From: Dictyostelium discoideum
Lineage: Eukaryota
NCBI GenBank assembly: GCA_000004695.1
Contig: CM000152.2
Location: forward strand, 5,664,001-5,728,000
Length of the DNA: 64,000 bases
Direction of reading: 5' to 3'
The notes below the pieces were generated by a model, which did no database searches, was not told the origin of the DNA, and saw only the letters and a list, made by a program, of their open reading frames with translations. The translations under genes and the position numbers were made by a program. Shown here in pieces: positions 15,957-18,977 of this stretch. The stretch's first letter is position 1; every line of letters begins with the position of its first letter.

Positions 15957-16052
15957 CGACGCCTGCAGGATTTGAACCTGCGCCCCCGAAGGGATTGAAT
16001 TACTCTTTTATATGATTCGAGTCCAACTCATTAACCACTCTGACAAAGCGTC
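15957..16052 (-). tRNA. tRNA-Ser(CGA)-like gene with a 15-nt intron
   Basis: Acceptor GACGCTT/AGGCGTC (one G-U); D-loop GAGTGGTTAA; anticodon stem TTGGA/TTCAA with loop CTCGAA(A), anticodon CGA; intron TCATATAAAAGAGTA after position 37; long variable arm CCCTTCGGGGG; T-arm GCAGG-TTCAAAT-CCTGC. Confidence 0.55.
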
Positions 16053-16514
16053 ACAATTTTTAGATGATTTTATCTGCATTTCTCAATTGAAATTAGAGAG
16101 GATAATGTTCATAGTAAACTGAATAAATTTATTCAAATTCAAAAAAAAAAAAAAAAAAAAAAAAAAAAAAAATTTTAATTTAACTGTTTTAATTCTATTT
16201 AAATTATATATTACCTTTTTTGATAATTAAATAAGAATTTTTTAAATTAATTTTTTTTTTATATTTTAAATATTTTGTAAATTTTTTGGATGTTTGTGAT
16301 TTTTGTATATTTTATACTTTCATTTTGGGTGGGTTCAGTTCCTTAATTCGAAGGATCAAAATAAACAAAATCATCTCTAGGAACCTCAAAAAGTTCAATG
16401 GAACACATCATATAAAACAATACTCTTCCTAAAAAAATGAAATTTGAAAGATTACAATGGAATTATGACTATTTAAATACTTTTTTTATTATTATTATTA
16501 TTTTTTTATTATTT

Positions 16515-16811
16515 TCATTTTAATATTTTCAATTTTTTTTCAAAGAATTCTTGATATGTTTCAGATGGAAATGAACCGGCAGAGAGCTTATCTAAACACT
16601 TCATCATGTAATTGAAAACAAGAGGGTTCCAGTCTTGTTGGCCCTTGGAAATTATTTGTTTATTTGATACATCAGTAGAGTTGAAACCTAAGCACACCAA
16701 TTCAATATTATTTTTAGTATAGCCTTTCTTGTTGTGGATCCTATTTACAGATAATTTGAAAACTCTATTATTTTCTCCAATATCACCGAGCTGATAGTGA
16801 ATTTGGCTCAT
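16515..16811 (-). CDS. hypothetical ORF (possible 3' exon of Cys-rich gene)
   Basis: 98-aa ORF; overlaps in another frame the end of a CxxC-containing exon (~16829..16960). The VCLGFN motif is weakly reminiscent of HNH/EndoVII-type nucleases. Confidence 0.3.
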   Translation of the reverse strand: MSQIHYQLGDIGENNRVFKLSVNRIHNKKGYTKNNIELVCLGFNSTDVSNKQIISKGQQDWNPLVFNYMMKCLDKLSAGSFPSETYQEFFEKKLKILK

Positions 16812-17073
16812 CTGGTCTTCTTACAAATTTGGCCTTGGTAATGGCACATCTATCATCATTATTATCACATAGTTTTTCTAATGTTTCTCTTGTTAAACTA
16901 AATTTTCCATATTTTCCATTTTTTTATATGTTGATGGGATCTTTTGTTTGCATTATTTGAAATGTTACGCATAAAATAAGTGTTACCTCCTTTTGACCTG
17001 AATTATTAAAAAAAAAAAAAAAAAAAAAAAATTAAAAACTATAATAAGAATATGCGAAATAATAATAAAAAAC

Positions 17074-17436
17074 TTACAAACACATTTTACATGTCAATAC
17101 ATTTTCTCTTTCATAATTCCATAATGGTTTATCTTGTAAACAACCTATACATTTTTTAAAAATATTAACATCACAATTCTTTAAAAGATCTTTGAAATTA
17201 TCCGATCTTTTAAAGGGAACTATTAATTCATCTTCACTTGAAATGTGTTTCAATTTAAGAAATGAATCTCTTGGATATTTAAAACAATGTTGAGTTATTC
17301 TATGATTAACATCAATATCATTATGATACAAAATACAATGGCCAATATAATTTACAGTAAAAATGTTACAACCAATACAATAACCATTTACTATTTCTGA
17401 ATTTTTTTTTCTTTTTTCAATTCTTCTTCCTCTCAA
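17074..17436 (-). CDS. hypothetical Cys-rich (multiple CxxC) protein exon
   Basis: 120-aa ORF with GYCIGC...GHC and CIGC...CKMC pairs, plus downstream KLCDNNDDRCAITKAKF in an adjacent exon. Confidence 0.35.
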   Translation of the reverse strand: MRGRRIEKRKKNSEIVNGYCIGCNIFTVNYIGHCILYHNDIDVNHRITQHCFKYPRDSFLKLKHISSEDELIVPFKRSDNFKDLLKNCDVNIFKKCIGCLQDKPLWNYERENVLTCKMCL

Positions 17437-17621
17437 CCATTATTTTTATACATCTAACACAGGTTTCAAAAATTCAACTATAAAATGATGACGGTGAACG
17501 AAGTCTATTACAAAATTTACATATTATAAAACTTTTAAAACTTTTATAAATTGAAAGAAAAAAAAAAAAAAAAGATTAATAATTTTTATAAAATATAATA
17601 CTTCATTGATTAATTTTATAA

Positions 17622-18185
17622 TTACTCTATATTATCATTATTAAAAAATTCTTCGTCATCACTAAATTCATCTTCTGAGTAATCATCTTCTAAATTTAAA
17701 CCATCATCTTCTATATCTGAATCATTGTATTCATATTCTTTGTCATTATATTCGTTTTCTTCTTTTTTATTTAATTCATATTCATTGCCATTTTTATTAT
17801 TATTATTATTATTATTATTATTATTATTATTATTATTATTATTATTATTATTATTATTATTATTATTATTATTATTATTATTATTATTATTATTATTATT
17901 ATTATTATTATTATCATTTGATGTTATTGTTGATGTTGATGCTGTTGTAGTAGTTTGATCATTTAATGGTTGCTGATATAAAAATTTATTATCATCTTTA
18001 GTACTAAAATAATACTTAATATTATCTTGATTATTATCTAATTGTTCCGTTTGCTGCCTCATTTTCTCTTTTTGAATATACTCTTCAATCGAACAAACTG
18101 TTTCCTTACTACTTGATTGAATAAATTTTGGTGATGATGAAGAATCATTTTTATGTTTTTTAAAAGTAATTGAATTACGACCCAT
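17622..18185 (-). CDS. hypothetical Asn-rich acidic protein
   Basis: ATG at ~18185 (MGRNSITFKK), poly-N tract from an (AAT)n run, acidic C-terminus DDYSEDEFSDDEEFF. Confidence 0.4.
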   Translation of the reverse strand: MGRNSITFKKHKNDSSSSPKFIQSSSKETVCSIEEYIQKEKMRQQTEQLDNNQDNIKYYFSTKDDNKFLYQQPLNDQTTTTASTSTITSNDNNNNNNNNNNNNNNNNNNNNNNNNNNNNNNNNNNNNNNNKNGNEYELNKKEENEYNDKEYEYNDSDIEDDGLNLEDDYSEDEFSDDEEFFNNDNIE

Positions 18186-18673
18186 TATAATAATAATAAA
18201 ATAGAAATAATATAATGGGAACCTAAGATTGAATGTGGAAATCAAAAAAGGATGTTTTAAAAAAAAAAAAAAAAAAAAAAAAAAAAAAAAAAAAAAAAAA
18301 AAAGGGTAATTTTTTATTTTTTTTTTTTTACAATTCAATAGAATAATTTAATCGTATATAATACTTATCTCTCTTACATCATATAAATATAGGTTTGTTA
18401 AAATTATAATTTTTTTAAGAATTAATGTATCTTTTTATATTGTAAAATATTAATGAGGTTTACTCTTATTTCAATCATATTAGTTTCATTTTATTTATTG
18501 TCGAAAAGTTATTTAGGCCAAGGCTAGTGAAAAGCTGTATTCAGTGGGCAGAAACTGGACTCACCATATAGATGCAGGCAGTGACTCTTCAGTGAATCGG
18601 AGCAGGTTACCTGAGTGGCAGTCCCTTAATACAAATTAGTTTACTATGAACATTATCCTCACTAATTTCAATT

Positions 18674-18846
18674 TTTTTTTTTGACGCAATTATTAATTGC
18701 TTCTCCCTGAGATGCTAGATCTCATTTTATTTGTAGTTTTTTACAGGGTCTCTAAAAGAGGGGTTAGTTTACTTTTTATTTTTTTTTTTTTTTTTTTTTT
18801 TTTTTTTTTTTTTTTGTATATTTTCTTTAAAAAGTTCTCACTAATT
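18674..18846 (-). mobile_element. retroelement 3'-end fragment (TRE5-like C-module plus oligo(A)) flanked by a 16-bp target-site duplication
   Basis: Insert is bounded by the direct repeat ctcactaatttcaatt (18658..18673 and 18847..18862). Its core (18683..18775) matches the reverse complement of 46078..46165. Has T9 and T47 runs (A-runs on the minus strand). Confidence 0.5.
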
Positions 18847-18894
18847 TCAATTGACAAATGCAGATAAAATCATCTGAAATTTGTGACGCTTTGT

Positions 18895-18977
18895 CAGAGT
18901 GGTTATTGAGTTGGACTCGAAGCATATAAAAGAGTAATTCAATCCCTTCGGGGGCGCAGGTTCAAATTAAGTAGTAA
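18895..18977 (+). pseudogene. truncated tRNA-Ser(CGA)-like pseudogene
   Basis: Near-identical to the minus-strand gene at 15957..16052 (D-arm A to T, loop T to G changes) but ends after the T-loop, lacking the 3' T-stem/acceptor. It shares the ~60-bp conserved 5' flank. Confidence 0.5.

Follow-up and report, generated by a model that had tools for sequence, protein, structure and literature searches.

The window analysed here is a stretch of 64,000 nucleotides of Dictyostelium discoideum DNA (assembly GCA_000004695.1, contig CM000152.2, positions 5,664,001 to 5,728,000 of the forward strand) with a G+C content of 21%. It holds a divergent pair of loci related to the serine transfer RNA (tRNA) with anticodon CGA, about 2.8 kb apart: an intact, intron-containing tRNA-Ser(CGA) gene at 15957-16052 on the minus strand and a 3'-truncated copy at 18885-18967 on the plus strand. 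A preliminary description made from the letters had proposed such a pair, one member intact and one lacking its 3' end, and the coordinates and an inverted-repeat alignment bear this out. A 5'-truncated TRE3-type retrotransposon follows the intact gene, and a 163-bp remnant of TRE5-A interrupts the upstream flank of the truncated copy. The window was compared with the loci L001, L003, L004, L005, L006 and L007. Locus L003 comes from the D. discoideum assembly GCA_054883475.1 and is collinear with the window over approximately 3.1-26 kb, at 99% identity. Both tRNA loci match this assembly, the sole second D. discoideum assembly compared, with 0 mismatches, and an assembly artefact is therefore ruled out.

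The intact gene was delineated by the Rfam model RF00005 and by the cloverleaf that ARAGORN draws when introns are allowed (option -i); it measures 96 nt including the discriminator G73, or 81 nt when spliced. The Rfam match, 16052-15957 on the minus strand, scores 46.5 bits (E 9.5e-7, gathering score 29) over the full model, with insertions of 18 nt in the region of the anticodon loop and 10 nt in the variable region. Read from the sequence, the acceptor stem is GACGCUU/AGGCGUC, the D stem pairs U10-A25, C11-G24 and A12-U23, and the T arm is GCAGG-UUCAAAU-CCUGC. The anticodon stem UUGGA/UUCAA includes one G-U pair; it had been proposed before as TTGGA/TTCAA, and it holds in the full-length Rfam match, in which no non-standard pair was flagged. 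All 7+3+5+5 pairs of the cloverleaf are standard, counting the G-U pairs at linear positions 6-90 and 30-55.

The anticodon CGA lies at 16017-16019, and a 15-nt intron, TCATATAAAAGAGTA, separates positions 37 and 38 (16001-16015); as RNA it reads UCAUAUAAAAGAGUA and is followed by A38. Once the intron is removed, the anticodon loop consists of C32 U33 C34 G35 A36 A37 and A38, with U33 before the anticodon and the purine 37 after it, and the predicted spliced junction joins GACUCGAA to AUUCAA. Loop bases C32, U33 and C34 pair with G, A and G at intron bases 13, 12 and 11, respectively, and the 3-nt bulge formed by U, A and A38 contains the 3' splice site. A helix between anticodon and intron with the 3' splice site in a 3-nt bulge is the usual layout of eukaryotic precursor tRNAs. 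An intron after position 37 had been noted before, and both the direct reading and this helix support it. In Saccharomyces cerevisiae the gene tS(CGA)C, or SUP61, is likewise a tRNA-Ser gene with anticodon CGA and a short intron at 37/38; its intron differs in sequence and length, and common ancestry of the two introns is not claimed.

The variable arm, UCCCUUCGGGGGC, is 13 nt long, and a long variable arm is a class II feature of tRNAs for Ser and Leu. Aligned with the D. discoideum tRNA-Ser(UGA) found in L005, the spliced tRNA is alike at 58 of 82 positions (71%, alignment score 32), and the two have in common the GAC...GUCG ends, the D loop, the variable arm, the T arm, the architecture and G73. 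Class I tRNAs from the comparison loci (tRNA-Thr, tRNA-Asp and tRNA-Ala) scored only -6 to -20 against it. The Rfam score, the length of the variable arm, G73 and the likeness to tRNA-Ser(UGA) together uphold the earlier assignment to a class II tRNA-Ser(CGA). Judged by its sequence, the minus-strand locus is a normal nuclear tRNA-Ser(CGA) gene with a canonical intron.

Consensus sequences have been given for the A box (TRRYNNARYNG) and the B box (GTTCRANNC) of D. discoideum tRNA genes (PMC5391098), and the B box of the intact gene, GTTCAAATC, fits the latter. Downstream, in AATCTTTTGTGTTTTG, two T4 runs stand 5 and 12 nt past the discriminator (15942-15952, minus strand) and are probable terminators for RNA polymerase III (Pol III). 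The gene is probably functional. Pol III would transcribe it from the internal A and B boxes and stop at the T4 runs just downstream, and the 15-nt intron, lying at the canonical 37/38 site, would be cut out by the tRNA splicing endonuclease, so that the gene is presumably both expressed and spliced. No explicit mention of a D. discoideum Ser(CGA) was found in the literature searched. ARAGORN at its default settings, which are blind to introns, found only two tRNA-Gly genes in the window and missed this one.

The plus-strand locus at 18885-18967 was identified by alignment and corresponds to positions 1-83 of the 96-nt gene. It stops in the T-loop, after T-loop base 60, at ...GGTTCAAAT, and continues into unrelated TAAGTAGTAATGG. 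It lacks the 3' strand of both T stem and acceptor stem, as well as the last conserved C of the B box. Rfam gave no tRNA match at this copy even at E<=10, and ARAGORN reported nothing real there. The inverted repeat 15970-16100/18837-18967 (131 nt, 95% identity, BLAST E 4e-57) is the only long one in the region outside low-complexity sequence. With the insert described below removed, the duplicated block amounts to 149 bp, -66 to +83 when counted from the first tRNA base. Its 6 substitutions are divided between the 66-bp flank, with 4, and the 83-nt gene portion, with 2. The latter are A22>T, turning G13.A22 into a possible G-U pair, and T>G at the first intron base. Both the two point changes and the missing 3' part of T-stem and acceptor had been reported correctly before. 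As far as its sequence tells, the plus-strand locus is a 149-bp inverted duplicate of the intact gene, made at the DNA level, and it is a pseudogene, since neither the T-stem nor the acceptor stem has its 3' strand. The missing 3' 14 nt, CCTGCAGGCGTCGA, were found only at the intact copy in a search of the whole 64 kb that allowed up to 2 mismatches. A further match, of GCAGGTTCAAAT at 32198, was rejected as the missing 3' part because it is coding sequence.

At the intact gene the shared 66-bp 5' flank, delimited by the alignment of the 149-bp block, runs uninterrupted over 16053-16118 on the minus strand. At the truncated copy the alignment finds it in two pieces on the plus strand, a distal one of 34 bp at 18640-18673 and a proximal one of 48 bp at 18837-18884, whose facing ends repeat the same 16 bp. 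Some 60 bp of shared upstream sequence had been described before, and the sharing stands (66 bp, 4 substitutions); the interrupting insert, marked by dots, had been left uninterpreted. Directly distal to the duplicated block, at 18500-18639, a composition profile shows a 140-bp GC-rich block (43-45% G+C) in a spacer of 10-20% G+C, on neither strand in particular.

Two motifs resembling B boxes lie downstream of the copies: GTTCAGTTT at 15910-15918, about +40 past the intact gene, and GTTCAATAT at 19041-19049, 73 nt past the breakpoint of the truncated copy. Neither fits GTTCRANNC. External B boxes have been reported for most D. discoideum tRNA genes (PMC5911963), and these motifs may be degenerate examples.

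The 163-bp insert (18674-18836, minus strand) consists of a C-module and an A-run and was recognised by its target-site duplication and by homology. The duplication is a perfect 16 bp, CTCACTAATTTCAATT, with its left copy at 18658-18673 (the last 16 bp of the distal flank piece) and its right copy at 18837-18852 (the first 16 bp of the proximal piece). The insert splits the 66-bp flank after base 34, with exactly 48 bp between its proximal edge and tRNA +1. Its minus-strand end reads GCGTC followed by A9-11 and abuts the distal repeat, and its orientation is opposite to that of the truncated tRNA. The core of the insert is 82% identical to window positions 46029-46189, the 3' end of a large 5'-truncated element upstream of a tRNA-Gly pair, 89% identical to L001:5292-5389, upstream of a tRNA-Val gene, 92% identical to the L005 element at its 3' end, and 97% identical to a C-module copy in L006 (9658-9749) that lies about 1.2 kb past ORF2 of that element (ORF, open reading frame).

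The L005 element carries ORF1 (3387-4827) and ORF2 (5001-8266) and lies upstream of a tRNA-Asp gene, on the opposite strand. Bases 5-336 of the TRE5-A 3' untranslated region (UTR) in the window (45692-46190) match both the 3' UTR (8262-8781) and the 5' UTR (3267-3595) of the L005 element. A module present in duplicate, once in the 5' UTR and once in the 3' UTR, has been reported only for TRE5-A, in which the last module is the C-module (PMC5006619; PMC5911963), and TRE5 elements insert 44-54 bp upstream of the sequence encoding the mature tRNA in the opposite orientation (PMC5911963). The insert obeys this rule in both position and orientation. We infer from the duplication, the oligo(A), the homology to a UTR module and the -48 position that it is a C-module remnant of TRE5-A that arrived by target-primed reverse transcription; the name TRE5-A is given by homology and module structure rather than by a named reference sequence, and strings of the C-module sequence found no match in the literature.

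Such TRE5-A remnants are routine in the D. discoideum genome. A similar short C-module remnant lies about 55 bp upstream of the tRNA-Ser(UGA) gene in L005, and another upstream of the tRNA-Val gene in L001. The insert resembles known TRE5-A (DRE) insertions in its place 48 bp upstream, its opposite orientation, the 16-bp duplication, the oligo(A) and the C-module, and differs from them in that only about 160 bp of the 3' end are left, the A-run is internal and the target is now a truncated tRNA gene.

The element downstream of the intact gene is a 5'-truncated non-LTR (long terminal repeat) retrotransposon of TRE3 type (13616-15886, minus strand), on the same strand as the tRNA. It was delimited by an RVT_1 match and by alignment to a longer copy in L004, and it retains ORF2 residues ~405-1149. 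Its ORF (13651-15879, minus strand, 742 codons) matches RVT_1 at E 4.6e-37 and is 99% identical to DDB_G0269266 of D. discoideum AX4, all close matches being from Dictyostelium. Its 90% cluster also includes P0126 (GCA_054883475.1), with 100% identity to the ORF, and the AX4 member DDB_G0279773, which matches the tail of the ORF perfectly. The DNA is 99.7% identical to the L004 copy from L004 position 1446 to the end. ORF2 of that copy encodes 1149 amino acids with Exo_endo_phos and RVT_1 domains, and the apurinic/apyrimidinic endonuclease (APE) part is absent from the window copy through the 5' truncation. At the 3' end of the window element, the ORF2 stop codon is followed by one T and A34 (13616-13649), and the L004 copy ends alike. 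The insertion is recent, given the 99-100% identity to other copies.

Its 5' junction, at about 15886, lies 70 nt from G73; counting the partly matching AAAAATAG as part of the element shortens this to 62 nt. TRE3 elements insert 40-150 bp downstream of tRNA genes and share their orientation (PMC5911963), and the position and orientation seen here agree with that rule. An 87%-identical relative in L001 likewise begins about 80 bp downstream of a tRNA-Val gene, on the same strand. The preliminary description was right about a truncated element of the LINE (long interspersed nuclear element) kind in the same orientation and about its TRE3-like targeting, to which RVT_1 can be added, but had placed it at ~55 bp, not at the 62-70 bp found. 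The best candidate for a target-site duplication is AAAAAA(T/C)AGG, which has one mismatch and merges with the tail. The likeness to TRE3 thus comprises the distance of 62-70 bp downstream, the same strand, the poly(A) end, the 5' truncation and a full-length relative with APE and reverse transcriptase; set against it are the imperfection of the duplication candidate and an assignment at the level of the class, without a subfamily.

A 758-amino-acid gene model, ACTFIT_011835 (L003:10001-12429, corresponding to window ~16079-13651), extends the truncated TRE3 ORF upstream by 16 residues. Its coordinates put its start within or beside the tRNA-Ser gene, and it is probably an annotation artefact.

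Taken together, we read the locus as a normal tRNA-Ser(CGA) gene and a decayed inverted duplicate of it, each of which was targeted by a retrotransposon, of TRE3 type and TRE5-A respectively, and we give this reading a probability of about 0.8. Its most likely history would have begun with an inverted duplication of the tRNA-Ser(CGA) gene. TFIIIC and TFIIIB would still have occupied the second copy when TRE5-A inserted at its -48 position, and the element would have been reduced to its C-module at integration or later. Finally, the 3' end of the second copy, which by this account was once complete, would have been lost through a deletion or rearrangement. Downstream of the intact gene, on the same strand, an element of TRE3 type integrated recently and was 5'-truncated.

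Several observations weigh against this reading, some at the intact gene and some at its duplicate. With introns allowed, ARAGORN names the intact gene tRNA-Thr(cgt): it draws the same cloverleaf, and excises AAUCAUAUAAAAGAG from within the anticodon (35/36), so that it reads CGU. The A box, TGTCAGAGTGG, fits a permissive pattern but fails the strict consensus at position 10 (T), a deviation compensated by A25. The cloverleaf reaches -22.5 to -24 kcal/mol, as against an unconstrained minimum of -27.9, and such a gap between cloverleaf and minimum energy is common for tRNAs. The copies show no homology beyond 149 bp on either side and no extended palindrome lies between them, so that the alignments give no direct sign of a once complete duplicate. 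The truncated copy's breakpoint is followed by 93 bp and A29 (18968-19089), and these 93 bp have no match in the window, in L001, L003 (their own syntenic copy aside), L005, L006 or L007, or among TRE ORF2 proteins, L004 not having been compared. Lastly, the GC-rich block abutting the duplicated block yields no repeat and no RNA family, and its fold z-scores (+1.5 and +1.1) are not significant.

The observations at the intact gene could be taken to mean that it is a tRNA-Thr(CGU) gene with a non-canonical intron, or a silent pseudogene, and the Rfam score of 46.5 bits, compared with 68 for the tRNA-Gly genes, could be cited with them. We consider this extremely unlikely. The preliminary description had held that a different isotype call would speak against tRNA-Ser; ARAGORN formally makes one, but it is an artefact of intron placement, and the identity as Ser stands. 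The Thr reading needs an intron that splits the anticodon between 35 and 36, and nuclear tRNA introns are located at 37/38. With the intron at 37/38, position 32 forms its standard pair with the third-from-last intron base, and the 3-nt bulge is obtained as well. The long variable arm, retained also in the ARAGORN structure, the discriminator G and the closeness to tRNA-Ser(UGA) indicate Ser, and we know of no cytosolic tRNA-Thr with a long variable arm. As for a silent pseudogene, the lower Rfam score is explained by the two insertions, of 18 nt and 10 nt, that the gene shows against the general model, every stem is intact, and the D stem is maintained by T10-A25 and A12-T23 despite the deviation in the A box.

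The observations at the duplicate bear on what happened to its 3' end. It is possible, if unlikely, that the plus-strand copy was never complete: a 149-bp piece, already truncated, would have been copied in, as filler DNA in double-strand-break repair or by a template switch during retrotransposition, and TRE5-A would have targeted the fragment later, the A box and the nearly complete B box still assembling TFIIIC and TFIIIB. The abrupt ends of homology at -66 and within the T-loop, with unrelated DNA on both sides, would suit such an origin, as would the retention of the A box and of 8 of the 9 core bases of the B box (GTTCAAATT against GTTCRANNC). TRE5-A has moreover been reported at A/B-box loci without other tRNA context (PMC5391098). 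A solo or defective B box is however a poor target, hit at <1% of the frequency of a normal gene (PMC5391098). There is no sign of retroposition: no target-site duplication surrounds 18640-19089, and A-runs are found everywhere in this DNA. Nor is a short duplication unit unusual, as the tRNA-Gly pair also shares only short flanks.

On a related account, to which we attach a distinctly low probability, the truncated copy is itself a live TFIIIC/TFIIIB site that drew TRE5-A after its truncation; it may then yield a Pol III transcript of ~135 nt, presumed to end at a T4 run 50 nt downstream, and, together with the intact gene, bracket the 2.7-kb gene in between, the two acting as boundaries formed by Pol III complexes. 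Alternatively, a short 5'-truncated retroelement at the TRE3 position could have removed the 3' end with a target-site deletion, the 93 bp and A29 at 18968-19089 being its own 3' end. The unrelated DNA from the T-loop on, the 93 bp leading to an A29 tract and the orientation are as expected for an element of TRE3 type; the 93 bp nevertheless remain unmatched in a comparison that took in TRE5-A, two other TRE-type families and a TRE3-type relative, and A-runs of such length are common in spacer DNA, which makes this highly unlikely. The idea that a large insertion split a complete gene, the 3' part of which lies elsewhere, would explain the abrupt break in the T-loop and nothing more. With CCTGCAGGCGTCGA confined to the intact copy and the only other match of GCAGGTTCAAAT lying in coding sequence, it is rejected within the window and can for practical purposes be set aside. 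A test of downstream similarity between the copies, with the TRE3 element removed, gave a score of 18.5, which was equalled or exceeded by 104 of 410 control segments.

Every component of the preferred reading, a normal gene with a decayed duplicate, falls into a class already described (a nuclear tRNA-Ser gene with an intron, a tRNA gene pair, TRE5-A and TRE3), and no new kind of element or mechanism is involved. The locus illustrates, in textbook fashion, how TRE5 and TRE3 use D. discoideum tRNA genes as landmarks and how tRNA genes are duplicated locally and decay. Beyond what had been described before, the analysis contributes the TRE5-A remnant and the target-site duplication around it, a corrected distance for TRE3 and an explanation of the isotype conflict in ARAGORN. 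For annotation, it is of use that tRNA finders blind to introns overlook the intact gene, that ARAGORN with introns misnames it, and that the truncated copy and the 163-bp TRE5-A remnant are easily missed. The truncated copy would gain interest only through a demonstration that Pol III factors bind it. Targeting by TRE5-A of a copy truncated from the start would be the more interesting outcome, if true, and a live site would be a chromosomal counterpart of the A/B-box loci on the ribosomal DNA palindrome. Like those loci (PMC5391098), the truncated copy, if hit after truncation, would be another site other than a tRNA gene that attracts TRE5-A; it differs from them in having lost the last conserved C of the B box.

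Pairs of tRNA genes with identical anticodons are a known feature of the D. discoideum genome (PMC8163159). The tRNA-Ser pair resembles them in having two copies a few kb apart that share only short flanks, as do the tRNA-Gly(UCC) and tRNA-Thr(AGU) pairs described next, and differs in that one copy is truncated in the T-loop and 6 of 149 positions differ rather than being identical. In the window, an identical tandem pair of tRNA-Gly(UCC) genes lies at 42517-42587 and 42954-43024 (minus strand) and shares only short flanks. Each gene has TRE5-type DNA upstream in the opposite orientation. Upstream of the first is a short TRE5-type 3' fragment (42650-42835), flanked by the target-site duplication (A/T)TTTGATTATT. 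The second has a 5'-truncated ORF2 upstream, which begins at about 43075 and shares 99.5% identity with P0028; after it comes a TRE5-A ORF2 tail with B and C modules, terminating in A11 at 46190. The 3' UTR of this TRE5-A copy contains an ORF of 94 amino acids (45816-46100), and the UTR part matches L005 3267-3595; the ORF is probably a duplicated ORF1 start and not a gene, because the matching L005 stretch overlaps the start of ORF1. In L007 (10481-11028), a convergent inverted pair of tRNA-Thr(AGU) genes is 405 bp apart, with several C-module fragments of TRE5-A nearby at 8769-9225.

Between the two tRNA-Ser copies, the list of ORFs gives three on the minus strand (16512-18188). Their presence had been noted correctly, but in GCA_054883475.1 they are joined as one spliced gene model of 423 amino acids (L003 7898-9568) rather than being three separate ORFs. 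No Pfam domain was found in the three, and a homologue search with the one of 188 amino acids found none; a search with a 315-amino-acid ORF of the window also returned nothing. The GC-rich block beyond them was compared with TRE ORF2 proteins, with the complete TRE5-A of L005 (5' UTR included) and with two further TRE families, and matched none of them. A permissive Rfam match on 18500-19200 to a Pseudomonas small RNA was dismissed as spurious.

About 440 bp from the tail of the TRE3-type element lies an element (8055-13177) with terminal inverted repeats of 244 nt (81% identity) and 36-bp tandem TTTCACTACAGTAGCGTAGTGAA motifs at both ends. It contains integrase-like ORFs, with weak rve matches in the window and a 656-amino-acid model in L003 bearing Integrase_H2C2 and rve, and an internal, near-perfect palindrome of about 1.2 kb at 10702-11892. 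It looks like an integrase-type DNA transposon similar to Tdd-4.

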